Source: Candidatus Moraniibacteriota bacterium
GTDB taxonomy: Bacteria > Patescibacteriota > Minisyncoccia > Moranbacterales > UBA1568
Assembly (NCBI GenBank): GCA_016699875.1
Contig: CP064989.1
Location: 85,380-149,379 of the forward strand
Reading direction: 5' to 3'
DNA: 64,000 bases
Shown here: in pieces, positions 1,524 to 64,000 of the stretch
How positions within the stretch are numbered: the stretch's first letter is position 1
Layout of the letters: every line of letters starts with the position of its first letter
Notes under the pieces: generated by a model
The model's database searches: none
What the model saw: the letters and a program-made list of their open reading frames with translations, nothing else
Told to the model about the DNA's origin: nothing
Program-made: the position numbers and the translations under genes

Positions 1524-4500
1524 ATGAAGCCCTGCCTTCCCGAAAACGAATACGTGCTTTCAAACGGATCGTTCGAATCGCATTTCAATGCGCTCGGGAA
1601 CGGATACCTCAAATCGCGCGAATGCTTCCTCACAAGCCACCGCCCTTCTTCGGACGATGGCCTCTTCTTCTTTGTAAGAGACGCCGATTCCGGAGCGTAT
1701 TGGTCGGCGACACCGGCACCGGTCTTTGCCCGTCCCGAACACTTCCGGATGAAAGTCGGCGCCCATTCAGCGCATATCGAGCGGCTCGACCATGGCATAG
1801 AAACCTCGCTCGATATCCTGCTGCCGAAGACTGGCAATTTCGAAATTCGCCGCCTCACCCTTACCAACCGTGACACAACCGTCCGGCGATTCGAGGTAAC
1901 CAGCTCCGTCGACATCATCCTCCTCTTCGACCGTCTTCGCGATTCCTATCACCAAACCTTTAGCAATATGTTTATCGGGGCCGAATTCAAAGAGGAGGAG
2001 CACGCCCTCCTCTACCATCGGCGATTCTTTGACAACCCAACGCACTTCCCATTTTTCATGCATCGGATATTCCTCGACGCGCCGGAGAACTTCCTCGGAT
2101 TCGAAACGGATCGTGAAGCATTCATCGGACGCGGACAGCCCTTTGGACGACCAATCGCCCTCAATCGCCCGCTCAAGAACACCGAAGGATACATACTCGA
2201 CCCGCTCGCCAATCTTCGGGCCGCTCTCACGCTGGAACCGGGCGAAAGCCATTCACTCTTCTTCTCCAATTCCGCTCACTTTCCGCCGGAACAACCCGAT
2301 CGCTTTTCGGAACAATTTCCGGATATCGGCGCCATCCGCACATTTTTCCACTCGGAGTTCGAGCGGGAGAATACCACTCGAAAAGATGTCCCCTGCGAAC
2401 GGGATGAGGTCGCCCCGCCAACGCCGCTCATCGAAAAACCCTCCGAAAACCTTCCCTTCAACTCCGAATCGCTTCTCTTCTGGAACGAATTCGGCGGCTT
2501 TGATCCGGATACGAATGAATACCGAATGCGCGTCTGTCCGGAGAATCTCCCGCCGCAGCCCTGGACAAATTTTCTCGCCAATCCCAATTTCGGTACCATG
2601 ACGACCGAAAACTCCCTCGGTACTACCTGGTTTAAAAACAGCAAGCACGGCCGTCTCACACCCTGGAGCAATAATCCCGTGAGCGACCCGCCAGCCGAGA
2701 TTCTCTTTATCCGGCAGAAAGATAGCGACGAGACCTGGTCGCTCACTCCGTCTCCTTTGCCAGCCTCGTCCGAATACCGGGTAACTCACGGAAGAGGCTT
2801 CACCAAATATGAAAGCGGGCGCAAATCGATTCACCACACGCTGACCGTCTCGGTGCATCCCGAACACGCCGTAAAATACCTCGCCATAGAGATTGAAAAC
2901 AGCGATGACAAACCGATCGATATCGATCTGATATTCTTCATGGACACCGCTCTCGATGCGTTCTCCGAAACCCCGGAACAAAAACATCCGCCGAAGCACG
3001 CTCCGACAGAAAATGTATTCCTCTTCGACGCCTCCGCATTCTCTCCGATTCGAAACCCGGAGTCAGTTCCATTTCATGTCGCCCTAACCGGAAGCGAACA
3101 CGTGCACTTGATCACGCGAAGCAAAGAACAGCTCTTCGGCATTTCCGGATCACTTTCCGTGCCAAAGCATATTCCGCATACAGAGAGCATCGCGAACCCG
3201 AAGTCTGCCACAGACGCCTGCATTGCCCTGGAAATGTCCGCCTCGATCAATCCCCGCGAAAAACACCGGGCGTTCTTTGCCATAGGCGTCGGAACAACGG
3301 AATCAGAGACACTCTCGCTCCTTCCGATCATCCGAAAGGAAATAGCGGCACAGTCGCCATTCTCGCTCGACACAGTGAGTCAATTTTGGAAACAAAACGA
3401 TACGCTGCCCTCCATCCAAACTCCGGATACATCACTCGATATCCTCTTCAATACATGGCTTCCCTATCAGACGCTCACTTCGCGCCTGTGGGCCAAGATG
3501 GGATTCTACCAACCCGGAGGCGCCTTCGGCTTTCGCGATCAACTTCAGGATTCGATGGCACTCTGGTATGTCAACCCGGAGATTACCGAGAAGCATATAC
3601 TCGCCGCCGCCGCCCAACAATTCGAAGACGGCAATGTCCGAGCCTGGTGGTCGCCAGACTCCGGGTATGGTGTCAAAAACGCAGCATCCGATCATCCGCT
3701 CTGGCTCGCCTGGAGCACCGCAGAATATATCCGCCTCTCCGGAAAAAACGATATTCTCGACCAAGATGCCCCCTTTCTCTCCACCGATCAGAATCAAGAT
3801 AAAGCAACGCTCTTCGACGTACAAAAACACAGGCCGTCGACCGTTTCCGCAACACTCCTCGAACACTGTCTCAGATCCATCGAGTTCGTATCCGTATTTG
3901 GCGTGCACGGACTTCCGGTTATCCGGAACGGTGACTGGAATGACGGCTTCAACCGAGTCGGCAATCAAGGAAAGGGCGAGAGCGTCTGGCTCGGATTTTT
4001 CTTATTCTCCGTCCTCGAGTCGTTTACGGCCATACTCGTCTCTCGAGGCGATATCCCCCGAGCGGACACACTCCGAAAACAATCCGCGACGCTCAAGCAG
4101 AACCTCAATACCCATGGCTGGGGCGGACACTGGTTTCTCCGCGCCTTCTACGACGATGGAACACCGCTCGGTTCCGAAAGCAGTCATGAGTGCCGCATTG
4201 ACGCGATTGCTCAGAGCTGGTCTGTTCTTTCCGCGGCAGGCGAGCGAGAGAAGCAGAAAGAGGCGCTGGAAAATCTCTGGCACTTTCTCTATGATCCCGA
4301 GTCAAAGATATTGAAACTCCTTGATCCGCCCTTCAATGACCTCTCCCGGAAGAATCCGGGCTATATCAAAGACTACCCGCCGGGCATACGGGAGAACGGA
4401 TCACAATACAATCACGCCGTTTTTTGGGCGGCGGAAGCATTTGCTGCTTTCGGAAATGCCGATCGCGTCTATACCCTCCTTGAATGCGCCAATCCAATCC

Positions 4501-4901
4501 GCCGTTCCGATTCAAAAAGCGCGGCACAGCTCTATGAGGTAGAGCCCTACGTGGTCGCCGCGGATATCTATTCCGCTGAACACCGCGGCAAAGGCGGATG
4601 GACATGGTATACCGCCTCAGCGGGACTCCTCTACCGGACCATCATCGAAACGCTCTTTGGCATTCACCTTACCGGCACTACTGTTTCATTTCATCCCTGC
4701 CTGCCGAAGACGTGGACACAGAGCTCAATCACGCTTCCGCTCGCACACGGTCGATACACATTTGTGTTCACCGCCCGAGCACATCACACGAATACGATAC
4801 AAAACATCGCACTCGACGGATCACCATTTAATGTATCTCAACCACCATACTCACTTCCAACCGATCAACAGGACCACCGATTTGAAATCTTCCTGAAATA
4901 G
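1524..4901 (+). CDS. Glycoside hydrolase family 94 (GT36) glycan phosphorylase, giant form (1125 aa; cellobiose/beta-1,2-oligoglucan phosphorylase-like)
   Basis: GH94 catalytic-region signature GFRDQLQDSMAL..VNPEITEKHILAAAAQQFEDGNV..WW, followed by the (alpha/alpha)6-barrel region motifs (NGDWNDG, YNHAVFWA). Roughly 170 aa longer N-terminally than the classical ~800-aa cellobiose phosphorylases. Confidence 0.8.
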   Translation: MKPCLPENEYVLSNGSFESHFNALGNGYLKSRECFLTSHRPSSDDGLFFFVRDADSGAYWSATPAPVFARPEHFRMKVGAHSAHIERLDHGIETSLDILLPKTGNFEIRRLTLTNRDTTVRRFEVTSSVDIILLFDRLRDSYHQTFSNMFIGAEFKEEEHALLYHRRFFDNPTHFPFFMHRIFLDAPENFLGFETDREAFIGRGQPFGRPIALNRPLKNTEGYILDPLANLRAALTLEPGESHSLFFSNSAHFPPEQPDRFSEQFPDIGAIRTFFHSEFERENTTRKDVPCERDEVAPPTPLIEKPSENLPFNSESLLFWNEFGGFDPDTNEYRMRVCPENLPPQPWTNFLANPNFGTMTTENSLGTTWFKNSKHGRLTPWSNNPVSDPPAEILFIRQKDSDETWSLTPSPLPASSEYRVTHGRGFTKYESGRKSIHHTLTVSVHPEHAVKYLAIEIENSDDKPIDIDLIFFMDTALDAFSETPEQKHPPKHAPTENVFLFDASAFSPIRNPESVPFHVALTGSEHVHLITRSKEQLFGISGSLSVPKHIPHTESIANPKSATDACIALEMSASINPREKHRAFFAIGVGTTESETLSLLPIIRKEIAAQSPFSLDTVSQFWKQNDTLPSIQTPDTSLDILFNTWLPYQTLTSRLWAKMGFYQPGGAFGFRDQLQDSMALWYVNPEITEKHILAAAAQQFEDGNVRAWWSPDSGYGVKNAASDHPLWLAWSTAEYIRLSGKNDILDQDAPFLSTDQNQDKATLFDVQKHRPSTVSATLLEHCLRSIEFVSVFGVHGLPVIRNGDWNDGFNRVGNQGKGESVWLGFFLFSVLESFTAILVSRGDIPRADTLRKQSATLKQNLNTHGWGGHWFLRAFYDDGTPLGSESSHECRIDAIAQSWSVLSAAGEREKQKEALENLWHFLYDPESKILKLLDPPFNDLSRKNPGYIKDYPPGIRENGSQYNHAVFWAAEAFAAFGNADRVYTLLECANPIRRSDSKSAAQLYEVEPYVVAADIYSAEHRGKGGWTWYTASAGLLYRTIIETLFGIHLTGTTVSFHPCLPKTWTQSSITLPLAHGRYTFVFTARAHHTNTIQNIALDGSPFNVSQPPYSLPTDQQDHRFEIFLK

Positions 4902-4906
4902 TAGCT

Positions 4907-5632
4907 ATGACGGTACCTCCCACACACACACCATCAAAAAACTCTTCAACCGACACGGATTCCGTTTGGATTGTTGTTCCAGCATATAACGAAGCGTCTG
5001 TCATTGCTTCGGTCATCGAAGAAATACACCGCGCCGGATATCGAAACATCATAGTCGTAGACGATGGAAGTACCGACCAAACAAACGCTGTCGCTCAGTC
5101 ATGCGGAGTCATCACGCTCCGGCACCGTCTCAATCGCGGCAAAGGCGCTGCCACCAAGACCGGCATCGAAGCAGCAAAGCTTTTGGGCGCAAACAGTATT
5201 GTTACAATGGATGGCGACGGACAGCATGATCCGGCAGATATTGAGAAACTTCTATACCCTCTCCGACAAAGAGGAATTGACGTTTCCCTCGGATCACGTC
5301 TTCTTCACCCAAAGGGAATGCCTCTGTACAAGATTATTCAGAATCGTATTGGAAACCTGATTACCTGGTATCTCTTCGGGCTCTATGTTACCGACAGCCA
5401 ATCCGGGTTTCGCGCCTATTCCCGACGTGCTGCCGATCTGATCAATACCCGCTACGACCGCTACGAATATGAAAGTGAAGTTATTCGGGAAATATACCTG
5501 TACAGACTGCGTTATATCGAGCTCCCGATCGCTGTTCGCTACACTGCGTACTCGATAGGAAAAATCTCCAAACAGAACCTCGCAAACGGCGTAAAAACCG
5601 TATACAAAATGTTCTTCAAATTACTTACCTAA
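4907..5632 (+). CDS. Glycosyltransferase family 2 (polyprenyl-phosphate sugar synthase / DPM1-like)
   Basis: N-terminal VWIVVPAYNEASVI..IIVVDDGSTDQT GT-A motif. Size is 241 aa, typical of the ArnC/DPM1-like subfamily. Confidence 0.85.
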   Translation: MTVPPTHTPSKNSSTDTDSVWIVVPAYNEASVIASVIEEIHRAGYRNIIVVDDGSTDQTNAVAQSCGVITLRHRLNRGKGAATKTGIEAAKLLGANSIVTMDGDGQHDPADIEKLLYPLRQRGIDVSLGSRLLHPKGMPLYKIIQNRIGNLITWYLFGLYVTDSQSGFRAYSRRAADLINTRYDRYEYESEVIREIYLYRLRYIELPIAVRYTAYSIGKISKQNLANGVKTVYKMFFKLLT

Positions 5633-5643
5633 ACAATTCCTCT

Positions 5644-5991
5644 ATGACAATCCATCTCTATCAAATCATCGTCGCCGTCATTTCTGTGATCATGATTTAC
5701 CAAGGAACCATCCGCTACATCAGGAAAGAAAGCGGGCAGACGATTCTCAAGGTATTTGTTCGACTCAGCGTATGGGGAGGCATGATCGCTATAACGGTTT
5801 TCCCCAATCTTACCAATCTCATTGCCAACTTCGTTGGATTGCAGGGCAATATAAATGCCGTCATTCTCACTGGGTTTCTCCTCATCTTTCTCATGATATT
5901 CAAGCTCCTCTCAGCAATAGAACGTCTCGAACAGAACATCACGGAAGTTACCAGGAAAGAAGCCATTTCCGTCTTAAAAGAAAGACGATGA
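5644..5991 (+). CDS. Small membrane protein, DUF2304-like (GT2-associated)
   Basis: 115 aa with two to three TM helices. Positioned immediately after the GT2 gene as in GT2-DUF2304 pairs. Its stop overlaps the start of the next gene (ATGA). Confidence 0.5.
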   Translation: MTIHLYQIIVAVISVIMIYQGTIRYIRKESGQTILKVFVRLSVWGGMIAITVFPNLTNLIANFVGLQGNINAVILTGFLLIFLMIFKLLSAIERLEQNITEVTRKEAISVLKERR

Positions 5992-7154
5992 ACGCATCAG
6001 GAAAAACATCGTTTCTTATCTTTTCCCCCTACTATCCGCCGCATATCGGCGGACTGGAGTCTCACGCCGACGAATTCAACAAGCATCTCTCACAGCGTGG
6101 GGTAGATATCATTGTTTTCACTCCTCATATCCCGGTCTCCGCGCCGGAACGCGAAACCATTCATAACCATGTGGAAGTCATCCGATTTCCGGCCTTTGAA
6201 CTCATTCATAATTATCCCGTACCAAAACTGTGGTCTCCGAAATTCTGGATCCTATGGCGGGAACTTTTCCGTTCGGATACCGATATTATAATTTCCAGAA
6301 CCAGATTCTTTCTCACTTCGCTCATGGCGCTCATTTATGCGAAAACGCGAGGAAAAAAATGGATACACATCGAACACGGATCTGATTTCGTTCAACTCTC
6401 CAGCGCATTCAAGACATTTCTTGCCAAACTCTACGACCATATATTCGGACGGCTTGTATTTCGATATTCCGACAAAAATATCTCGATTTCAAAAGCCGTA
6501 CAGAACTTCGTCGGAAAATTCGACAAACGAATGTCCCCTGTCATTTACAGAGGGCTGGAAACACGAGCAATCGACGCGATCGCGCCGGACACCGAAGTTC
6601 GCGCTCGGCATCACGGAAAAGTAATTCTCACTTTCATCGGGAGACTCTACAAATGGAAAGGCGTGGCGGACAGCATAACGGCGATACGCTCCTTGCCCGA
6701 AGAGATAAAGAATAAAATCGTTTTCCTTATTGTCGGAGACGGCGAAGATTTCTCATCACTCAAAAAACTTTCCCAAAGTGAAAAATGCATCGAAATGCTT
6801 GGAAGCCTCCCAACGAAACACGCGATCGCGATACTCAAATCATCGGATATATATCTCCACTCTGCCCATCCGGGAGGAGGACTTTCCACATCGCTTCTCG
6901 AAGCAATATACTGTGGATGCACCGTTGTCGCCACACCACATGAGGGCGCGAATGAAGTCATACGGAACGGAGAGAACGGTATCCTTATGGAGGATTCTTC
7001 CCCTATCAGTGTAAAAGTGGCTATCGCTAGCCTTCTCGCTAATAGTAGCCATAACGATGTCTCCCTAAAAAATCAGGCACGACAAACAATTACTGAAAAA
7101 TTTTCTTGGAAAAAATCGATCGACGAATATGTAGACATATTCAAAGCACTATGA
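5988..7154 (+). CDS. Glycosyltransferase family 4
   Basis: Start chosen at MNASGKTSFLIFSPYYPPHIGGLESH (GT4 N-terminal motif). C-terminal EA..CG.PVVAT-like motif. The track ORF begins further upstream (5772) but overlaps the DUF2304 gene in another frame. Confidence 0.75.
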   Translation: MNASGKTSFLIFSPYYPPHIGGLESHADEFNKHLSQRGVDIIVFTPHIPVSAPERETIHNHVEVIRFPAFELIHNYPVPKLWSPKFWILWRELFRSDTDIIISRTRFFLTSLMALIYAKTRGKKWIHIEHGSDFVQLSSAFKTFLAKLYDHIFGRLVFRYSDKNISISKAVQNFVGKFDKRMSPVIYRGLETRAIDAIAPDTEVRARHHGKVILTFIGRLYKWKGVADSITAIRSLPEEIKNKIVFLIVGDGEDFSSLKKLSQSEKCIEMLGSLPTKHAIAILKSSDIYLHSAHPGGGLSTSLLEAIYCGCTVVATPHEGANEVIRNGENGILMEDSSPISVKVAIASLLANSSHNDVSLKNQARQTITEKFSWKKSIDEYVDIFKAL

Positions 7155-54655: not shown

Positions 54656-57073
54656 TCACTCGGCGAGAGCAGCCGCCTGCTGCTGATAGCCGGACGCCGT
54701 ACAACCGACATCCCGACATCCGCACTTCCAAACATTGTCTACCAAATGGCAGATATAGGCGAGAATGAGCATAGGCTTCGCCGTTGAGCCCGTATCCACC
54801 TGGGGACCTGCGATAGTGAGTCGGGCTCCTCCCTGACAATAGTCCTCCCATAATTCACCAGAAGAACATTCAACGGTAAAGGTCGAATCCACACCCATTT
54901 TGCTATTCCGCACATACGCCGTCTTGTACACAAGAACATTCTCATCGCCATCTTTCCCGAGTTCCACATCGAGCCTCTCCGGTTGGTTCGGATAACAGAT
55001 GGGAGAAATAGTCAGGCGATTCCCTTCATACCAATCAAACGGCGGCGAGTAGTGCTGAACACTCCATACATCCCAGGTGTCCGCCGTAATGAGCGGGCAT
55101 GAAACCGGAGCACTCGGATCCGAAACCGTATCGATTTCGTCACCATCCGCTGTTTCCGGAATGGTAAACAAAAGCGAAGCGGTCATACCACCCCTATCGG
55201 ACTGCGTCGTGCGAAAGTCGTAGTCAACTTCCGCCGAGAGCACGTAGTCGCCCGGGACCGTCGGCATGACAAACGAAACTTCTTCCTGCGCTTCGTCGCC
55301 TTCGTCTCTCAAGTGTTCCCGCTTGGTTTGGTCAATACCGATCACAATCGGGTCGGGACCGTACTGCGGACCCTGAACCCGCCACTGCGTATTCACCTTG
55401 CTCGATGCAAATGGCGTTCCATCGTTCCGAATCTTTACATAGACTGTCACCCCTTCTCCGGGTTTCACAGTGGGATTGGAAAACCATATCTGTGGTATGG
55501 AGAGATGCGGATTCTCCGTCAACTCGAAAGGCTGTTCATCCTTCCCGTTGTTTTTCTCATTCGACTCAGACTCCTTGTTGTCAGGATCAATATATGCCCC
55601 GAAGTTGAAGTGTCCCGGATAGAGGGACGGGTAATTGTCGCCATGGATATTGACACAGTGCTTTGTCGTTGCCTTGGCAGTCCTTGCTTTGGCAAGATAC
55701 TTCGCCGGTATCATTTCGGACCCGACCGGGTTCGGATGCTTATCCCCCCATCCGCCTTTCGAGACATAGAAAGTGATCTTTATGTCTTTCAACACATTCT
55801 TGTTTCCGGCATTCTTGCTTTCGGCAACAAAGCACACCGTATCCCCCCAACCGATAGTATCCCAGACATGGCCGCTACTACGCTCTGTCCAAAGTTTGGT
55901 CACAACCAGATCGGATCGCTTTCCGTCCGCATTAGCTCCAACTGCCGGTGAGAAAACTTCGCCGGTAGGATCCGTTTCGGCATAGGCGCCCCAGTCGATA
56001 GCTTTGTCGCCATGCATACCAGGACCATCCGTTAAGACAACCACCTGCCGATTGGTTCCCTGGATTTCATAGACTTCACCGATCCGGTAGACAGTGAGCT
56101 GTTGTTGAATCGACGAATCGGCAGCCAAAGCGGTCGGCGTTTGCGCGAGTCCGAACAGTGAATGCCACAGACTCGTCAAAGGACTGATCCACGATGACCA
56201 CCACGGCGCCTTTTTCACATCGACGATATCGTCCACCTTGACGACACCGCCATTGTTCTCCGCACTTTGCAGTGTAGACTCGATAGCCTGCTCGACTCCC
56301 GAGCAAGCCTCGCTCTGACTCACCTCCTGTGTAATCCAGTTGTCACTCTTTAATCCGTCAATGATTTTGAAACGAGCATTTGCCGTATCGCATCGGTTGG
56401 ACCCCTGGAGAACATAGTCTCCCACATGATGAAAACCCTGTGTACCTTTTGGAATGAGGGTGGCGGGACGGTTATCTTTGAGGAACTTGAAAGGCTCTAC
56501 CCAACCGCAGTGATCGGATTGGTAGCAACTGTTGCCTCGGTATTCCTTTTCTGGATCTTTTACATCTGGACGAATCCCAATATGTAAATGATCCGCACGA
56601 GATCCATCCTTTTGGTAGTATGAATGAACAGTGGCAATTTCCTCGCCCTTCTTCACAATCGTCTTACTCCCGCACCTCCTAGCATCCAGATAGGCTGCAT
56701 CAGGAGTATCGTGTCCATAGACGGTAAAGAATACCTGCCCCGTATCTGTATAGTGACGGAGAAGTATAACGCCGCCTTTAATTCCAACACCACCATAGTT
56801 CTTGGCATCTAAACTATAGTCTTCCACACAACCATCAGCTATTGCAGTGATTGGCGTATAGACTTCGCGACACATATCATCGCCAACATGTCCGTCATAC
56901 CCAACGGGATCGCCCGAGTATTGAGAGAACTGAGCGCAGTACTCACGGGAACGGAAATCTACGGGAGATGACCATCCGTTCTGGCGATAATCAGGAACGT
57001 CAGCGCCAAGAGCGAATGTGAGCCCCGGCATAATGACAAGAAACACAACTGCAAGAAACCTTCTCGGAAACAT
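54656..57073 (-). CDS. Secreted M23-family metallopeptidase with very large C-terminal beta-rich extension (CARDB-like segment)
   Basis: Signal peptide MFPRRFLAVVFLVIMPGLTFALG. HVGDD (HxGxD) and HLHIG (HxH) M23 motifs in the first 250 aa, then ~550 aa of additional domains. Confidence 0.6.
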   Translation of the reverse strand: MFPRRFLAVVFLVIMPGLTFALGADVPDYRQNGWSSPVDFRSREYCAQFSQYSGDPVGYDGHVGDDMCREVYTPITAIADGCVEDYSLDAKNYGGVGIKGGVILLRHYTDTGQVFFTVYGHDTPDAAYLDARRCGSKTIVKKGEEIATVHSYYQKDGSRADHLHIGIRPDVKDPEKEYRGNSCYQSDHCGWVEPFKFLKDNRPATLIPKGTQGFHHVGDYVLQGSNRCDTANARFKIIDGLKSDNWITQEVSQSEACSGVEQAIESTLQSAENNGGVVKVDDIVDVKKAPWWSSWISPLTSLWHSLFGLAQTPTALAADSSIQQQLTVYRIGEVYEIQGTNRQVVVLTDGPGMHGDKAIDWGAYAETDPTGEVFSPAVGANADGKRSDLVVTKLWTERSSGHVWDTIGWGDTVCFVAESKNAGNKNVLKDIKITFYVSKGGWGDKHPNPVGSEMIPAKYLAKARTAKATTKHCVNIHGDNYPSLYPGHFNFGAYIDPDNKESESNEKNNGKDEQPFELTENPHLSIPQIWFSNPTVKPGEGVTVYVKIRNDGTPFASSKVNTQWRVQGPQYGPDPIVIGIDQTKREHLRDEGDEAQEEVSFVMPTVPGDYVLSAEVDYDFRTTQSDRGGMTASLLFTIPETADGDEIDTVSDPSAPVSCPLITADTWDVWSVQHYSPPFDWYEGNRLTISPICYPNQPERLDVELGKDGDENVLVYKTAYVRNSKMGVDSTFTVECSSGELWEDYCQGGARLTIAGPQVDTGSTAKPMLILAYICHLVDNVWKCGCRDVGCTASGYQQQAAALAE

Positions 57074-57221
57074 AGACTATCTCCTTTGCAGAAAGGGTGA
57101 AAAGTAATTTCGATAACGCCATCCTGAGATTGTTAAAGAACATTCCTTTGATTCTCTACTTGTCCCCAAATTTTTGGAAACAAGATGGAAAAACAAAGGG
57201 TTTCGAATTCCTAATATGCCC

Positions 57222-57908
57222 CTAGAAGAATCGAAATGTACCTAAAATAGAGGAAAAATAATCTGATTTACCATCAAACAAATAACTTGATCCACAAGTA
57301 TTTATCTCAATAATATATTTATTATTTGTGAAAAAGGCACTATAGTCACTACAAATCGATGCCCAGCTGATAAAATTCTCACTTTGCCAAGCATTAGAAC
57401 CGGAGAACAATTTATTAACTCCAAACCTCTCCACATCGGCATCGTGAGTTTTCCCGATCCACCCTTCAAAGTTATTGCTAAATTCTTTCGAGAAATCAAA
57501 AACCGACACATTGATAACCCAAGAATCTACAGCGTCTCCTCCGCCGAGAGAAGGATCGGAAATCTTCAATCCTCTCCGGCTATTGAACATATATTCCGTT
57601 TTCTGAGGATCCAAGTATACAACATTTCCTTCAGCCCTCACTTGATTCTTCATATTTTCCGGAACAGAATACTCGTCCGACAGTTTGAATTCGAATCCGT
57701 ATTTTTCATTCCGATATGTCTTCCATGTTGAAGCATCGTCGGATTCTGAAACTGCTACATCCTCCACATTGTCTGTCGACTGAACAGGGTTCTTGTGTTC
57801 GCTTTGTGCATACTGTCGATCACGAAGAACACACCATCCTGCCACAGCGGCAGCAATCGAGACCAACGCTACGACACCAAGAATAATCCGCTTGTTTGAG
57901 GGCTTCAT
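57222..57908 (-). CDS. Hypothetical N-terminally anchored extracytoplasmic protein
   Basis: TM VALVSIAAAVAGWCVL then a ~200-aa domain. No family recognised. Confidence 0.4.
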   Translation of the reverse strand: MKPSNKRIILGVVALVSIAAAVAGWCVLRDRQYAQSEHKNPVQSTDNVEDVAVSESDDASTWKTYRNEKYGFEFKLSDEYSVPENMKNQVRAEGNVVYLDPQKTEYMFNSRRGLKISDPSLGGGDAVDSWVINVSVFDFSKEFSNNFEGWIGKTHDADVERFGVNKLFSGSNAWQSENFISWASICSDYSAFFTNNKYIIEINTCGSSYLFDGKSDYFSSILGTFRFF

Positions 57909-58014: not shown

Positions 58015-60999
58015 TTACACTTTCTCTTGAACTCGTTCGCGCACGTGCTCAAATATTCGATCGTTTACAAACTTTCGCAATTCAGGATTCTCGTCGAGCT
58101 TTTTATAGAGTTCAAAATGACTATTAAGCATACGCACCAATTCATCATTGAAGAGATGGTCGAATTTGATTTTGGCACTGTCTTTGCTATTGGCGCGAAT
58201 AGTGCCCGACAAATCAGCATTGCCAACTAAACGCTCGCTCAAATCATTCAAAATCACGCGATCGTCCGAATTGAAATTCGTGCCATAACGCTCGTTTATC
58301 TCTTTGACAATCTTTGAAAGTGGGTCAATCTCTTCATGCACCTCCCACTTCGAACCGCCGCTCCCCATCGGTTCAATTTCGCCAGATTCATGTGCGAGTT
58401 TGATTTGTCGCATGCCTTTGTCCTCGACACGATAGAGCTCCATATCCACCGCTTCAAGCACCTCCTTCGGCAACGCATCTTTTTCCCTTGGCAATTTCTT
58501 AATCAAGAACTTGAGGAATATATATAGCTTCTCCAACGCCGGATCTTGAAATGTCACGATCTGCGAGATAAACGCATACTTGCGATTATAATCCGCCGCT
58601 TTTGACTTGAAGTCCATTCGTTCCTCAGCAAGCCAGTCTTTCGCACGCTCCACCACCGCATCCATCGCCGCATTGAGCTGATCAGGGGTCGCGCCCATCA
58701 TGTACATCTCTACAAATCCCTCCATCTCGCAAGTCTCAAACAGTTTGTATCCGAGTACATCGCGTTCAAGATTATATAAGATGTTCGGGTCGGTTGCCTC
58801 GGAGAGTATTGTGGTTGTGTAGTACGGTTGGAACGCTTTCTCTATGTCATCTGTTGTGTTCACAAAATCCAACACAAACACTTCTTCTTTGAGCGGTGGA
58901 TGAATACGGTTCAGTCGCGAGAGTGTCTGTACCGCACTCACGCCGGAAAGCTTCTTGTCGACATACATCGCCATAAGAAGTGGCTGATCAAATCCGGTCT
59001 GGAATTTCTCCGCCACGATCAAGAACTTGTATTCATCCTTGTCAAACTCGTCCGCCGTCTGCTTTTCCGGTACACCGTTCATCTGCGCTTCGGTATACTC
59101 ACGACCATCATCTTTCACCGTACCCGAAAATGCCACCATCGCTTTGTGATCATAGCCTTGCTCCTTGAGGTACTTGTCAAACGCCAGTTTGTACCGAACC
59201 GCATGAAGCCGCGACTTAGTAACAACCATCGCTTTTGCCTTGCCGCCATCTTGCTTCGCGATCTTTTCTTCAAAGTGCCGAACCATGATCTCAGTTTTCT
59301 TGCCGATCGCATGCTCGTGTCGCTCGACATAGCCCACCAGAAGCCGCTCAGCTTTCTTCTTGTCAAATTCCGGGTCATCCTCAACCTTCTTCAGAAGTCC
59401 AAAATACGTTTCGTACGTTGTATAGTTTTTGAGTACATCAAGAATAAAGCGCTCTTCAATCGCTTGCTTCATCGAGTACAGCGAGAACGGGTAAAATTTC
59501 CCATCCACCAGACTCTGCACGCCAAAGAGCTCCAGTGTCTTCTGTTTCGGGGTGGCGGTAAACGCAAAGAAGCTTACGTTCGGCGCCTTCACCTTGCGCG
59601 CCTTCATGCGCTCGACGAGACGATCCTCGACCGTCTTGAACGCCTTTTCTCGATTCTCTTGCTCACGCTCAGCATCTTCAAGCGTCAGCACCTCGCGCAA
59701 ATCAGCGGCCGACTCTCCCGACTGCGAGGAGTGCGCTTCGTCAACGATCACCGCAAAGCGACTGCCCTCGGTTGCATCAATAGACTCGACGATCACCGGA
59801 AACTTCCGCAACGTACTCGTGATGATACGCGTACCCTTCTCAAGTGCCTCACGAAGCTCAATAGAACTCTCCACATGCTTCACAACACCTTTTACCTGAG
59901 AAAAACTCTCGACCGTTTCGGAAAGTTGTCGATCAAGCACACGCCGGTCAGTAACCACTACCACGCCATCGAATACTTTTGTATCATACTCATCGTGCAA
60001 CTCCGACAAACGATGTGCCGCCCATGCGATCGTATTGCTCTTCCCCGATCCCGCACTGTGCTGAATAAGATAGTTGCACCCCGGACCATTCTTCCGCGCA
60101 TCTGCGATCAATCGCCGCACGGTATCAAGCTGGTGATAACGCGGAAAGATGAGTCTATTTTCTTTTGTCTTTTTACCATTCGGCAATTCCTTTTCCTCCC
60201 ACACATCCTGTATAAAACGCGATACAAGATCAAGCACGCTCGACTTGCTCCACACATCCTCCCATAGGTAATGCGTCTTGTATTTCTTATCAGCAGGAGG
60301 ATTGCCTGCGCTCTCTTTGTATCCTTTGTTAAACGGCAAGAAATATGTCTTGAGTCCCGAGAGCTTGGTGCTCATGAGTATCTGTTCGGCATCAACCGCA
60401 AAGTGCGTGAGGCAACGCTTGAATGACAAAAGTTTCTCTTTCGGATCGCGATCGGCCTGATATTGTCGCACGGCATTCAAAACATTTTGCCCCGTGAACT
60501 GATTCTTAAGCTCGGTAGTAAAGAGTGGCAATCCGTTCAAAAACAGCACCATGTCAATCGAGCTCTCATTCTGCTCACTGTATTTGAGCTGGCGCACCAC
60601 GCTCAAAATATTCGCATCAAAATCTTTCTGCGCATCCGGGTTCATGCTCGTCTGCGGCTCGGCATACATAAGCCTGACCGTCACTCCGCGATCTTTCACT
60701 CCCTCTCGAAGCACTTTCAAAAGCCCTTGACTCGCAATCTCTTCATCCACCCGCTCCAAAAATCGCTCTTGCACATCGGCACCATACTGCCCCTCAAGCA
60801 CCTGCCACTCATCCGACTGCGTAGTTCGCACGAACTCCAGCAAAAGTCCGGCATCCATCGCAAGCCGTTTATCATAATGCTCGCGCGGGCTACGAATACG
60901 ATACCCATGCTTCTCCACGAGCTCATGCTCAATGAATTCTTCAAATCCTATTTCTTTGGTGTTTGTTCGTAAATCGGACATAGTACTATGATTTATCAA
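58015..60999 (-). CDS. hsdR: Type I restriction enzyme R subunit
   Basis: N-terminal PD-(D/E)xK (IDMVLFLNGLPLFTTELK), helicase motifs GSGKSNT (Walker A) and VIVDEAHSSQ (DEAH). 994 aa. Confidence 0.9.
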   Translation of the reverse strand: MINHSTMSDLRTNTKEIGFEEFIEHELVEKHGYRIRSPREHYDKRLAMDAGLLLEFVRTTQSDEWQVLEGQYGADVQERFLERVDEEIASQGLLKVLREGVKDRGVTVRLMYAEPQTSMNPDAQKDFDANILSVVRQLKYSEQNESSIDMVLFLNGLPLFTTELKNQFTGQNVLNAVRQYQADRDPKEKLLSFKRCLTHFAVDAEQILMSTKLSGLKTYFLPFNKGYKESAGNPPADKKYKTHYLWEDVWSKSSVLDLVSRFIQDVWEEKELPNGKKTKENRLIFPRYHQLDTVRRLIADARKNGPGCNYLIQHSAGSGKSNTIAWAAHRLSELHDEYDTKVFDGVVVVTDRRVLDRQLSETVESFSQVKGVVKHVESSIELREALEKGTRIITSTLRKFPVIVESIDATEGSRFAVIVDEAHSSQSGESAADLREVLTLEDAEREQENREKAFKTVEDRLVERMKARKVKAPNVSFFAFTATPKQKTLELFGVQSLVDGKFYPFSLYSMKQAIEERFILDVLKNYTTYETYFGLLKKVEDDPEFDKKKAERLLVGYVERHEHAIGKKTEIMVRHFEEKIAKQDGGKAKAMVVTKSRLHAVRYKLAFDKYLKEQGYDHKAMVAFSGTVKDDGREYTEAQMNGVPEKQTADEFDKDEYKFLIVAEKFQTGFDQPLLMAMYVDKKLSGVSAVQTLSRLNRIHPPLKEEVFVLDFVNTTDDIEKAFQPYYTTTILSEATDPNILYNLERDVLGYKLFETCEMEGFVEMYMMGATPDQLNAAMDAVVERAKDWLAEERMDFKSKAADYNRKYAFISQIVTFQDPALEKLYIFLKFLIKKLPREKDALPKEVLEAVDMELYRVEDKGMRQIKLAHESGEIEPMGSGGSKWEVHEEIDPLSKIVKEINERYGTNFNSDDRVILNDLSERLVGNADLSGTIRANSKDSAKIKFDHLFNDELVRMLNSHFELYKKLDENPELRKFVNDRIFEHVRERVQEKV

Positions 61000-61666
61000 G
61001 CTCCGTTAACTCATTGATATGCTTCCAATGTATACTTCGAAAGATACTTGCTGGACCTACTTCAAGAGAAGGCGAATGCGACACCACTCCTACGACCTTT
61101 TGAAAGTTCTTTCTCATCACGATTGGGGCACCACTATATCCTCCCACAATCGGACCCGATATCTGAATTGTTTTAAAACCCGCTCCTTCGTCGTTCACAT
61201 CATTACCTATTACACCTTCTGCATACGAAGGTGAATGTTTTTCATTGAGCAATTGTGTACCAAACGGAAATCCCGCGTAAGCAATCTTTTCACCAACATC
61301 AAGATGTTCGGAACATATCTCGAGACCCTCCAAAACCTCGTGTTCGAGCAACTTAACGTCATCATCATCGTTTGGTTCGATATTAAGAATCGCGAGATCA
61401 TGCTTATAATCCAAAACACTAACAGTCGCTTTCCGATACGGTTTCAAATTTCCCCCAACAACAAGAATGCCTGTAATTTCAATTGGCTGGTTCAGAAGGT
61501 TTTCGACCACATGGGCGCACGTAATAAAGGATCCATTATCGATCCAGAAACCCGTGCCATTAACCTCAAGGCGTGGCGAGTCAAACCCTTTTGCTACAGG
61601 ATTAAATTTTGGTTTGAGAATACCGACCGTACGAACCGCAGACAATAATTTTTGATTTGTAGACAT
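60986..61666 (-). CDS. Cytoplasmic trypsin-like (S1/Trypsin_2) serine protease embedded in the Type I R-M operon
   Basis: Catalytic triad context TCAHVV (His), DLAIL (Asp), GYSGAPIV (GxSGxP Ser). No signal peptide. 14-bp overlap with the hsdR start and a 10-bp gap to hsdS. Confidence 0.7.
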   Translation of the reverse strand: MSTNQKLLSAVRTVGILKPKFNPVAKGFDSPRLEVNGTGFWIDNGSFITCAHVVENLLNQPIEITGILVVGGNLKPYRKATVSVLDYKHDLAILNIEPNDDDDVKLLEHEVLEGLEICSEHLDVGEKIAYAGFPFGTQLLNEKHSPSYAEGVIGNDVNDEGAGFKTIQISGPIVGGYSGAPIVMRKNFQKVVGVVSHSPSLEVGPASIFRSIHWKHINELTELDKS

Positions 61667-61675
61667 ATTTGTGAT

Positions 61676-62923
61676 TTACACCCTCACCTTCCCCGTCACC
61701 ACATGCGAGATGAGGGCGGATTTGAATTCTTGTAATAGGGTTGTCGACTTTTCGACATTGGTCATGATCTGATCAATGAGCATCAGTCTTTCTAAGAGAT
61801 GGCTTACAATTTCTTGTTGCACATCAATAGAGGGGAGTTTCAGTTGGTAGTTCCGTACAAACTTGTCCGAAACTCGTTTTTGTCCTGCCGATCCGCGCAT
61901 CTCAATTTCACCATGCTTTCGAAAGTTATCAGCATAGACAATGTAATATAAGTATTCTGGCAGAATTGACTCATCAGACCGAAGTACCAAGAACTCTGTT
62001 GTGCCAAAACCAAACCCACCATTCAAACCTCTTATCACGGCAGCTTTTCCATTTTCATAGCACGGCGTAATTTTTGCCAAGACCACATCTCCATCTTTGA
62101 AATACGTGAAGCCGTCTTTTACGTCACCGTACTTACGCTCCTGCGACGTCACCACACCAGTTTCTGAAACTGCTTCCATTGGAAGAAAAGCAACGATGTT
62201 ATTTGGATCGAGTTTTGGTACTTCCCGCTTACTTGGATTCACCAATACATGATGTCTTAGTCGAATCGTCTCACCATCCACACTTGTCACCGCGCGGTTG
62301 ATGATGGCGGCGCGTTTTTCGCGCAGAAGCTCGATCTGCTTCTTTTTCTTCTCAATGATCGCGTCGACGAGCGCCGTCTTTTCGTCGAGGTATGCGGCAA
62401 TCTTTTCTCGATCTACTGTCGAGGGTACAGGTATGATAATGCGCTTCATTTCATTTGAACGTGTTGTCCAAAGGTCATCGACAATGCCACGTCCCCATCG
62501 ATAGAACTCATCACCAAAAATTGCGCTTCGTATGAGGTAGTGAAAGTAGCGCGATGTTTCTTCACCACTTCGAGCCTTAAGTACGTGATATACCAAGGAT
62601 ACCGATCCATCATATTCTGACAACCCGGCAGCACCACGCCTGTCCGATCTACCATTTATTGCAATGTCACCTTTCTTCACTCGCTTTCGACTACTTCCTT
62701 CTGCATTAGATTTTGCGGCATTCTCAATTTGCGGTACCACGCCGCCGTACGTCACAGAGAGTGCTTCATAGTCCTCATCACTTACCTTATCGTTACGAAA
62801 ATCAAACTGCGAGTACAGCTTTTTAGCGTCCCACTCAGCAGGCATCTCACCAACCCACTCCGCACCCGAGTTTTTATACTTGGGATAGCGATCGTATTTT
62901 TTTGTCAGCTTCAGCGTTGGCAT
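61676..62923 (-). CDS. hsdS: Type I restriction-modification specificity subunit
   Basis: Two target-recognition domains separated by a conserved central helix (IIEKKKKQIELLREKRAAIINRAVT). Conserved C-terminal helix (LLQEFKSALISHVVTGKVRV). Confidence 0.85.
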   Translation of the reverse strand: MPTLKLTKKYDRYPKYKNSGAEWVGEMPAEWDAKKLYSQFDFRNDKVSDEDYEALSVTYGGVVPQIENAAKSNAEGSSRKRVKKGDIAINGRSDRRGAAGLSEYDGSVSLVYHVLKARSGEETSRYFHYLIRSAIFGDEFYRWGRGIVDDLWTTRSNEMKRIIIPVPSTVDREKIAAYLDEKTALVDAIIEKKKKQIELLREKRAAIINRAVTSVDGETIRLRHHVLVNPSKREVPKLDPNNIVAFLPMEAVSETGVVTSQERKYGDVKDGFTYFKDGDVVLAKITPCYENGKAAVIRGLNGGFGFGTTEFLVLRSDESILPEYLYYIVYADNFRKHGEIEMRGSAGQKRVSDKFVRNYQLKLPSIDVQQEIVSHLLERLMLIDQIMTNVEKSTTLLQEFKSALISHVVTGKVRV

Positions 62924-62924
62924 A

Positions 62925-64000
62925 CTACAACTCCTTCAGAAGATCCAGAAGTTCATTCTCCACCTCTTCGATATCCTTCTCGATCGCTTCAAGCTCGCGC
63001 GGCGGTTCGTATTTGTAGAAGTAGCGCGTGAACGGTATCTCGTAGCCGACCTTGCCGACTTCGTTGTCCTTGTGATCACGGACTGATTCGTTGATCCATG
63101 CATCGGGCACATAGGGTCTCACCTCTTTCTCAAAATACTCATAGATATCTTGATCGAGCGGCACATTCTCGTGATCGCGCAAGTCGCTGTCTGGCTCGGG
63201 GTCGCCGTGCGTGTCTGTGCAGATGTCTGCCGAGTCGCTTCGCTCTGAGAGCGTGTTGAGCACTGCCTTTTTTAGTGGCGTGCCGAGCTTTTTTGGTTTC
63301 AGGTATGACTCGAACACTTCGAGGAACTGCTCGCGATTGGTATAGAGCTCTTTGTATGGGAACGCTTTGAGATACTCAATGAGCGCGGTTTGCTCTGTAG
63401 CTTTGAGTTTTTCGAATACCTTTTCGGTCTTGAGCCTTTCAAGTCGTTCGTCGCTCACCTGGAAGTCGAGCCGCAGCGGTCGCTCGATGGTGATCTGGCG
63501 GTACCCGAAGTCGGTCGTATTGAATATCTTGCTGTATTCTCCATCTTCAAATGCTTCATAGAGATCATGCACACGCTCGCGTGCTTTTTCATCGATATCG
63601 TTACGCTTGTTGCCCAAGCTCTTGCGACGCTTGGTGAAGAATGTACGTGCGTCTATGAGTTGTACTTTGCCTTTGCGTTCGTCACTCTTCCTGTTGGAGA
63701 TAAACCACAGATATGTGTTGATGCCGGTGTTGTAGAAAAGCTGGTCAGGCAGCGCCACGATCGTCTCAAGCAGGTCTTTCTCAAGAAGCCAGCGACGGAT
63801 CTCACTCTCACCACTGCCCGCGTCGCCCGTAAAGAGCGGTGAGCCATTGTGAACAATGCCGATGCGGGAACCGCCGTCTTTGATCGGTTTCATTTTAGAC
63901 ACAAGATGCTGCAAGAACAGAAGTTGCCCGTCGGAAATGCGCGGTGTCCCCGCACCAAATCTCCCCGCATACCCGCGCCGCGCTTCGCGATCGACCGCTT
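62925..64000 (-). CDS. hsdM: Type I restriction-modification methyltransferase subunit (C-terminal ~2/3; N-terminus beyond window end)
   Basis: The frame stays open upstream of the track start to the window end (..GYAGRFGAGTPRISDGQLLFLQHLV..). LFLQH and downstream HsdM C-terminal region. 1-bp gap to hsdS. Confidence 0.8.
   Translation of the reverse strand, partial: AVDREARRGYAGRFGAGTPRISDGQLLFLQHLVSKMKPIKDGGSRIGIVHNGSPLFTGDAGSGESEIRRWLLEKDLLETIVALPDQLFYNTGINTYLWFISNRKSDERKGKVQLIDARTFFTKRRKSLGNKRNDIDEKARERVHDLYEAFEDGEYSKIFNTTDFGYRQITIERPLRLDFQVSDERLERLKTEKVFEKLKATEQTALIEYLKAFPYKELYTNREQFLEVFESYLKPKKLGTPLKKAVLNTLSERSDSADICTDTHGDPEPDSDLRDHENVPLDQDIYEYFEKEVRPYVPDAWINESVRDHKDNEVGKVGYEIPFTRYFYKYEPPRELEAIEKDIEEVENELLDLLKEL

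Follow-up and report, generated by a model that had tools for sequence, protein, structure and literature searches.

We analysed a 64,000-nucleotide (nt) stretch of a Candidatus Moraniibacteriota genome (contig CP064989.1, positions 85,380 to 149,379; the whole stretch is hereafter called the window), in which a small trypsin-like serine protease is encoded inside a Type I restriction-modification (R-M) operon. Four co-directional genes occupy positions 58015-64000 on the minus strand, in the order hsdM-hsdS-protease-hsdR. The hsdM gene is represented by its C-terminal 357 codons (62925..64000), in a frame that stays open to the end of the window and runs past it; it is followed by hsdS, which encodes the specificity subunit (61676..62923; 415 amino acids, aa), by the gene for a stand-alone serine protease of the trypsin/HtrA fold without any accessory domain (60986..61666; 226 aa), and by hsdR, encoding the restriction and translocase subunit (58015..60981; 988 aa from the ATG at 60981). 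The original prediction, made from the sequence alone, had described this gene order, its orientation and the tight coupling of the genes, and all four genes were found where it had placed them.

The HsdM segment matched Pfam N6_Mtase (1.3e-22) and the PADLOC model MTase_I PDLC03029 (6e-143, profile positions 306-659 of 661); these matches cover the C-terminal part of the protein, the N-terminal ~300 aa with catalytic motif IV lying beyond the window. HsdS was recognised by PADLOC Specificity_I (8.7e-89, in two stretches) and Pfam Methylase_S (7.5e-10). In HsdR, the Pfam domains HSDR_N (5e-15), SWI2_SNF2 (1e-25), ResIII and a T1R_D3-like domain (6e-13) were found, together with a match to TIGR00348 hsdR (1.6e-58) and a distant one to the HsdR of EcoR124I (2e-12); the D..ELK nuclease motif, GSGKS and DEAH were all recognised by eye in the translation. 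The host operon is accordingly annotated as a predicted Type I R-M system, with an HsdR nuclease carrying a superfamily 2 (SF2) motor and with HsdS and HsdM forming an N6-adenine methyltransferase. For the C-terminal ~100 residues of HsdR (897-992; window 58015-58310), a weak similarity (1.5e-4) to PDC-S15, a single-gene candidate of PADLOC, was also recorded.

The junctions between these genes had been given as 1 bp, 10 bp and an overlap. The first value, between hsdM and hsdS, was correct, but the hsdS-protease spacer read from the sequence is 9 bp (61667..61675, minus strand), and the 14-nt overlap between the protease gene and hsdR arises only when the first in-frame TTG (60999) is taken as the hsdR start. 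Since HsdR orthologues with 70-96% identity begin 2-3 residues ahead of the conserved TNTKEIGFEE, translation of hsdR almost certainly begins at the ATG at 60981, so that a 4-bp spacer separates it from the protease stop codon. The hsdS and protease genes share one reading frame and are separated by TAA and three codons (ITN; 61664-61678), an arrangement that looks coincidental in the window; an HsdS-protease fusion produced by programmed read-through was ruled out, since the spacers of 11 other loci do not hold the two genes in a consistent frame. Inside the four-gene cluster neither promoter-like nor terminator-like signals rose above shuffle expectation, and a search of the cluster for marks of insertion (internal promoters, terminators or repeats) likewise gave nothing above that level and no meaningful repeat; tRNA and Rfam scans of the window found no features. 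The guanine-plus-cytosine (GC) content is 0.42 in the protease gene, 0.46 in hsdS, 0.52 in hsdM and 0.49 in hsdR, against a window mean of 0.47, and the lower values of the hsdS-protease segment are consistent with an exchangeable part of the operon.

The exact protein is labelled by NCBI as a 'trypsin-like peptidase domain-containing protein' of a Candidatus Moraniibacteriota metagenome-assembled genome (MAG). It matched Pfam Trypsin_2 (3e-13), and neither a PDZ domain nor any further domain was detected by Pfam in its 226 aa, the sequence stopping after a C-terminal helix. AlphaFold2, run on an alignment of 35 homologues, returned a model with a predicted local distance difference test (pLDDT) of 90.4 and a predicted template modelling (pTM) score of 0.88; the protein is predicted to be a chymotrypsin-fold (clan PA, S1) serine peptidase with a double beta-barrel. 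The three putative catalytic residues are His52 (codon CAT, 61511..61513, in TCAHV), Asp90 (GAT, 61397..61399, in HDLAIL) and Ser178 (AGT, 61133..61135, in GGYSGAP), all on the minus strand. In a profile-to-PDB alignment they match the catalytic residues of Mycobacterium tuberculosis HtrA1, namely its histidine, the aspartate of DLAVLKV and the serine of GNSGGP. Each is invariant in the alignment (35/35 for His52), which contains 36 invariant positions and has a mean column identity of 61%; His52 is kept in the window and in 37 of 38 homologous loci, the exception being an internally deleted copy (locus L014 in our numbering). The predicted His-Asp-Ser triad is intact, in the canonical order and within the canonical motifs.

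No signal peptide was recognised, the highest Kyte-Doolittle 15-residue mean over the N-terminal 30 window starts being 0.87. A longer form bearing one is impossible, because the sequence upstream in the same frame consists of the HsdS C-terminus, the TAA and the three codons. The product is thus predicted to be cytoplasmic, a bare protease domain. The claim that this gene encodes a signal-peptide-less S1/trypsin-fold enzyme with an intact triad, and the two weaknesses foreseen for it, a triad that would not align and a corrected start that would add a secretion signal, were all settled in its favour.

Comparison with a 91%-identical homologue gave a pN (nonsynonymous) of 0.048 and a pS (synonymous) of 0.78, and dN/dS between the copies of loci L002 and L003 was ~0.012, values that indicate strong purifying selection on the protease gene. 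Conservation extends beyond the active site: residues 1-35 include a family-specific segment (R12, G15 and P19, about AVRTVGxxKPxFNP), the C-terminal helix (residues 204-226) has the invariant positions G204, A206, I208, F209, H216 and L223, and a serine is the last residue (..ELxKS-COOH) in 35/35 aligned sequences, regardless of the gene that follows. These terminal elements could serve in oligomerisation, autoinhibition or docking.

A word-indexed search recovered 73 clusters (90% identity) of homologues, with 45-100% identity and nearly all of ~215-250 aa, four of them truncated to 180-206 aa. An exhaustive profile search of 1.84 billion representatives returned 17 clusters (50% identity) at E<=1e-30, past which the score dropped steeply to generic Trypsin_2 proteins (~1e-13); the predicted family is therefore rare and sharply delimited. 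Multi-domain relatives, considered as a clue to a sensor, were uninformative, the nearest matches outside the family being generic Trypsin_2 proteins with RCC1, WD40 or Ig domains. The hosts are mostly uncultured: Patescibacteria (the candidate phyla radiation, CPR), Omnitrophota, Planctomycetota, Verrucomicrobiota, Lentisphaerota and gammaproteobacterial MAGs. A phage origin was rejected after no relative was found in IMG/VR, and a plasmid origin after a plasmid collection yielded distant unrelated matches only, from a Vibrio PEP-CTERM locus.

The genomic context of the family was examined in a scan of one genome per GTDB species, which provided 39 close and 3 distant loci; these were annotated by tblastn, clustering of open reading frames (ORFs) and phmmer searches against six-frame translations. 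Three copies are decaying, through a stop codon (L012), an internal deletion (L014) and a frameshift (L039); all others, whether embedded or solitary, have an intact triad.

In 15 of the 39 species-level loci the protease lies in or beside a Type I system, and the HsdR proteins of these hosts fall into at least seven lineages with a mutual identity of only 19-38%, so that the co-occurrence proposed as a check on the original prediction was indeed observed. An hsdS gene, whether full, half or a remnant, stands directly upstream of the protease in 14 of the 39 loci, as in the window, and the two genes overlap or are separated by no more than 24 bp in 11 loci besides it. The arrangement of the window, hsdM-(x)-hsdS-protease-(0-2 genes)-hsdR, recurs in eleven loci (L001, L004, L011, L013, L014, L016, L018, L033, L034, L035 and L037). 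Two others (L002 and L003) have a half-size hsdS directly 5' of the protease and then a complete hsdM-x-hsdS-hsdR-YgjP operon, two (L012 and L023) have the protease between hsdM and hsdS, and in L008 and the metagenomic loci L045-L047 just an 83-88-aa hsdS remnant is left directly upstream of it. The decaying Type I locus L045 (2463-7963; also L046 and L047) comprises hsdR, an NYN gene, a truncated N6_Mtase, a Y1 transposase and a 68-86-aa hsdS fragment, and an intact protease follows it, having outlived its host operon.

The proteases are far more alike than the systems around them. Between the window and L002 the protease is 59% identical and HsdR 19%, and among L033-L037 the corresponding values are 63-68% and 25-35%. 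Because embedded and non-embedded copies are interleaved in the protease tree and the HsdR lineages are diverse, the association with Type I systems is read as one gained or kept many times and not bound to one Type I family. The linkage of the family to restriction systems is far above chance, chiefly on the 3' side of hsdS. A conserved partner or substrate gene was sought by all-against-all BLASTP and phmmer clustering of the neighbours in the 42 loci, and no small conserved downstream ORF emerged; the only recurrent neighbour families were the Hsd genes, a MazG/SLFN-helicase cassette (2 loci) and a YgjP metallopeptidase. A Pfam survey of 134 neighbours revealed no recurrent partner family, and metallo-beta-lactamase (MBL), Pepco, EACC1 and alpha/beta-hydrolase effectors were absent from the 25 families listed of the 125 Pfam families that these neighbours matched.

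The gap between hsdS and hsdR also receives other genes. Where it holds cargo in addition to the protease, the protease is the first gene after hsdS (5/5 loci). The additional genes downstream of it include cargo of a defence type, namely a ThsB-type TIR protein with a DUF4231/SLATT membrane protein in L013 (6947-7757), a Shedu SduA_C nuclease in L037 (5040-6170) and a DUF4145 protein in L034 (8733-9440); the extra cargo is a weakly Nuc_deoxyrib_tr-like gene (E 6e-3, below the Pfam cut-off) in L011 and a 77-aa ORF in L018. In L023, a DUF4145 gene (2921-3685) precedes the protease, and in L048, the locus of the closest homologue, the protease is adjoined by an HTH/M78 peptidase gene. The HsdR family of the window is abundant (>8000 matches at E<=1e-50), and orthologous operons with HsdR identities of 70-89% have a common layout, (RadC)-Fic-hsdM-[slot 1]-hsdS-[slot 2]-hsdR. 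Those without the protease carry in slot 2 a DUF3800 gene and insertion-sequence genes (L055), a 104-aa ORF (L056) or a 188-aa ORF (L058). Since sister operons hold unrelated cargo there, the hsdS-hsdR gap is a general embedding hotspot of the kind already known, and the protease is one of its several alternative cargoes.

Other parts of these operons vary as well. A Fic/DOC gene, sometimes with RadC, usually lies directly upstream of hsdM in the Type I family of the window (L055, L056 and L058; L001 and L014, at 1551-2687 and 3400-4536, respectively). Slot 1, between hsdM and hsdS, contains NYN or unknown ORFs of 121-234 aa in this family and is empty in the window. In L002 (8300-9004), L003 (15843-16547), L011 (13007-13732) and L013 (10744-11484), the end of hsdR is overlapped by a gene for a YgjP-like/WLM-like metallopeptidase, so these protease operons encode two different peptidases; a truncated YgjP-like gene follows the protease in L007 (1080-1649).

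Outside Type I loci, seven of the 39 species-level copies adjoin other restriction or defence genes. Neighbours of this kind, over all the loci examined, include HNH_2 upstream and a C5 methylase downstream (L010), an EcoRI-type methylase and GmrSD_N-HNH (L015), Mrr_cat (L020 and L051), a MutH-like endonuclease (L032), an N4/N6 methylase with DUF6996/6997 (L049) and an AAA_15/AAA_21 ABC ATPase (L009). In L005/L043 (4203-7734) and L038 (4918-7876) the protease gene is immediately preceded by a three-gene cassette for a MazG-like protein, an SLFN-group-3 helicase with a fused Peptidase_S24, and an SRA/HNH protein; it was seen twice independently, in two unrelated phyla and with divergent protease copies. 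It looks like a modification-dependent restriction module and is a second recurrent partner of the family. In approximately 16 of the 39 loci the neighbours are only housekeeping or unknown genes (SerRS, GyrA, GroEL, glycosidases, aldo-keto reductase). In a Bifidobacteriaceae MAG (L028), a serpin recognised via its signature motif (5352-6566; Pfam Serpin, 1e-121) is encoded two genes 3' of the protease in the same orientation; since serpins are familiar from bifidobacteria, this proximity may be a coincidence.

In the window, two genes lie immediately 3' of hsdR on the same strand (54656-57908). The product of one (GC 0.41) has 228 aa and a hydrophobic anchor at its N-terminus; that of the other has 805 aa, an apparent signal peptide (by eye) and weak matches to Peptidase_M23 (just below the Pfam cut-off) and CARDB. 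Both look like cell-envelope genes outside the R-M cluster; an M23 peptidase is also found near the operon of the closest HsdR orthologue (L055).

Because this rare family recurs beside restriction genes, the protease is probably an uncharacterised accessory phage-defence gene, and the family seems to travel as accessory cargo of restriction systems, most often in the slot directly downstream of hsdS. Our preferred reading, to which we give a probability of roughly 0.4, is that the protease is a self-contained second-line defence effector and that the restriction operons are its vehicles. In the window it would be co-transcribed with hsdM, hsdS and hsdR, probably with translational coupling. 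Its latency would come from its own conformation or oligomeric state, as in HtrA-type proteases; a cue derived from infection would switch it on, and the active enzyme would cut host or phage proteins and so halt phage growth. The Type I operon would contribute co-expression and co-transfer, not an obligatory inhibitory partner.

Several observations weigh against this proposal. The protease is without a sensor domain, and the 42 loci revealed neither a conserved partner nor a pro-effector gene, which sets it apart from every characterised defence protease. The ~16 loci mentioned above have no recognisable defence neighbour. The family is absent from the phage and plasmid collections, so that its mobility is inferred only from its patchy distribution. 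Finally, its constant first place after hsdS in the loci with extra cargo hints at a closer tie to Type I systems than hitch-hiking.

Such a tie is the core of the next most probable reading, in which the protease would bind the Type I complex and be silenced by it until a phage anti-restriction protein (a DNA mimic such as Ocr or ArdA, or an Stp-like peptide) disables or distorts the complex; the protease, now released or activated, would kill or arrest the cell. The original prediction had proposed it by analogy with PrrC, an ABC-ATPase fused to an anticodon nuclease and encoded in the layout hsdM-hsdS-X-hsdR (PMC12707154). The slot is identical to that of prrC, and hsdS is directly upstream not only in the window but also in more than a third of the species-level loci, across at least seven Type I lineages, and the protease always precedes whatever further cargo is present. 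Spacers as short as 1-24 bp suggest that the protease and HsdS are made in a constant ratio, and an embedded share of ~40% is very high compared with most systems in the survey of Payne et al. (2024, bioRxiv 10.1101/2024.01.29.577857). However, Type I genes are missing from the surroundings of more than half of the intact copies under selection, and several of these copies stand beside Type II or Type IV enzymes, so the protease cannot generally need the Type I complex as an 'antitoxin'. The host subunits also seem too divergent for one interface (proteases 59-68% and HsdRs 19-35% identical), and HsdRs only 19-25% identical beside proteases 59-68% identical argue against a conserved interface specific to HsdR; moreover, the regulatory ABC-ATPase domain of PrrC has no counterpart in the protease. 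The analogy with PrrC therefore held for the position, and a comparable role is plausible, but dependence on the Type I complex was weakened by the solitary and non-Type I copies. We regard this guarding mechanism as possible but unlikely. A version in which the family would be the first proteolytic 'restriction guardian', a minimal enzyme that would sense restriction complexes, chiefly those of Type I, through the HsdS/HsdM core and would start indiscriminate or targeted proteolysis once a phage anti-restriction protein disables the complex, seems to us slightly more doubtful still.

The protease could instead be a housekeeping component of the R-M system, degrading HsdR or Type I complexes stalled on unmodified or damaged host DNA and thus acting in restriction alleviation as an operon-encoded substitute for ClpXP in control of the EcoKI type. 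Proteolysis of HsdR by ClpXP is an established form of restriction alleviation for Type IA and IB systems (PMC12707154, PMC11109961) and provides the precedent. The protease is co-expressed with its putative substrate, enzymes of the HtrA fold are quality-control proteases, and the YgjP-like/WLM-like metallopeptidase recurs after hsdR in four of these Type I operons (L002, L003, L011 and L013). On the other hand, YgjP and the protease are encoded together in some operons and are thus not plain substitutes for each other; the solitary and non-Type I copies lack any HsdR on which they could act; the protease is missing from thousands of orthologous HsdR operons, the Type I family being tolerated in its absence; and the nearest sequence relatives are effector domains, not regulators. 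We consider this role improbable.

The two remaining explanations are less likely. One assigns no defence function to the protease, which would be a small cytoplasmic enzyme or selfish cargo that drifted into variable slots, the hsdS-hsdR gap among them. The loci with only housekeeping or unknown neighbours, the three decaying copies (L012, L014 and L039) and a GC content lower than that of the adjacent genes would agree with it, but an hsdS directly upstream in 14 of 39 loci and in at least seven lineages is far beyond chance, as judged from the 1-2 hsdS genes expected per few thousand genes, and both the strong purifying selection and the kinship of the domain with defence effector proteases point elsewhere, which makes this explanation quite improbable. 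The other, that the protease cuts phage or plasmid anti-restriction proteins and so shields adjoining restriction enzymes of several types, would suit the mixture of Type I, Type II and Type IV-like neighbours and a bare, partnerless domain free of toxin-like regulation, but it is purely inferential, literature searches gave no precedent for it, and the great diversity of anti-restriction proteins sits badly with so well conserved a protease (mean column identity 61%), so that we hold it to be very improbable.

It is established that back-up defences can be embedded in Type I operons, and immune effectors of the trypsin type increasingly prove to be common. The defence proteases characterised so far all combine a sensor fusion with a dedicated pro-effector; a bare 226-aa protease placed recurrently right behind hsdS would be simpler than any of these modules, and raises the question of how a lone cytoplasmic protease stays harmless and what it cuts. 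Its hosts are chiefly uncultured bacteria whose genomes are tiny (CPR, Omnitrophota), and in such genomes each retained defence gene is informative. If the protease regulates or guards restriction, a proteolytic layer would be added to R-M biology, and in the guardian version it would stand beside PrrC and PARIS as their proteolytic equivalent, one that at least seven Type I lineages have recruited over and over. If it is autonomous, as in our preferred reading, it would be a new single-gene defence candidate.

Among known systems, PrrC of E. coli (EcoprrI, Type IC) offers the closest likeness in position, being a lone accessory gene between hsdS and hsdR, the same gap that the protease occupies in 11 homologous loci; in both cases a high share of the family lies inside Type I loci and a back-up to restriction is plausible. 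They differ in composition, an ABC-ATPase with an anticodon nuclease versus a bare S1 protease domain, and no ATPase or PrrC model matched the protease, which was recognised only by Trypsin_2/Trypsin in Pfam and by protease models in PADLOC. They differ also in distribution, since PrrC is almost exclusively embedded in Type I loci (Payne et al. 2024) versus ~40% of the protease family.

Payne et al. (2024) showed that the majority of genes lodged in Type I, BREX or DISARM loci serve in defence, and derived 145 candidates; TgvAB of Vibrio cholerae is an example of such embedding (PMC11411939). The protease resembles these embedded genes as an accessory gene that interrupts a Type I operon in a slot with alternative cargo in sister operons. 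One of these candidates, PDC-M35, is a two-gene cassette (FAM_02427>>FAM_02508) whose A profile is trypsin-like and of ~216 positions, close in size to the 226-aa protease of the window. The match to PDC-M35A was weak (4.7e-7, 27.8 bits, PADLOC), the flanking genes are hsdS and hsdR, and no conserved partner was found in the 39 loci, in contrast to the two-gene cassette, and membership was rejected. The uncultured hosts of the family were probably outside the RefSeq set used in that survey. In the literature searches, no account was found of a serine protease lodged in a Type I operon, nor of the present family. The suggestion that this combination had not been described hence stands for the family itself but not for the principle, as embedding in Type I loci is published and PADLOC already lists the trypsin-like PDC-M35A.

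The nearest defence relatives of the protease are effector proteases: its best PADLOC matches were RT-Protease_XI of retron type XI (3.8e-17), LmuA (1.3e-7) and Avs1b (5e-3). In Hachiman, AVAST, Lamassu and DRT systems, trypsin-like proteases occur as fusions with sensors and switch on pro-effectors encoded next to them (such as an MBL nuclease, Pepco, EACC1 or an alpha/beta-hydrolase) (PMC12799240, PMC12642450), and such modules have been acquired recurrently by unrelated immune systems (PMC12799240). The protease shares with those of retron XI, LmuA, Avs and Hachiman the Trypsin_2 domain with an intact triad and the recurrent uptake; it lacks both the sensor fusion (reverse transcriptase (RT), HamA, Avs NTPase or LmuA) and the adjacent pro-enzyme. 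Membership in retron type XI was rejected, as the match covers only profile positions 350-490 of 510, the protease part, the 226-aa protein has no RT, and the Rfam scan of the window was empty. Membership in a protease and pro-effector module was likewise rejected, the Hsd genes being the sole recurrent neighbour families of note and a sensor fusion being absent.

From HtrA, DegP and DegS (MEROPS S1C) the protease is set apart by the absence of a PDZ domain, a signal peptide and a membrane anchor and by its predicted cytoplasmic location; identity is only 17-25%, and the R12/G15/P19 segment and the C-terminal helix ending in serine are specific to its family. ClpXP and the YgjP-like metallopeptidases, some of whose genes share operons with the protease, are similar to it in that proteolysis is tied to Type I R-M biology, but they have other folds and catalytic classes, and ClpXP is a chromosomal housekeeping protease. 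The Lit protein of the E. coli e14 prophage is a zinc metalloprotease that is activated by the Gol peptide of T4 and cuts EF-Tu; it is a single-protein proteolytic abortive-infection effector without a partner gene, is not embedded in an R-M operon and has no kinship of sequence or fold with the protease of the window. If our preferred reading is right, Lit would be its closest functional analogue. The arrangement described here is not a categorically new system, since a defence-embedded accessory gene and a protease effector are both already known in kind; what distinguishes it is an unusually minimal module with an unusually specific linkage to hsdS.

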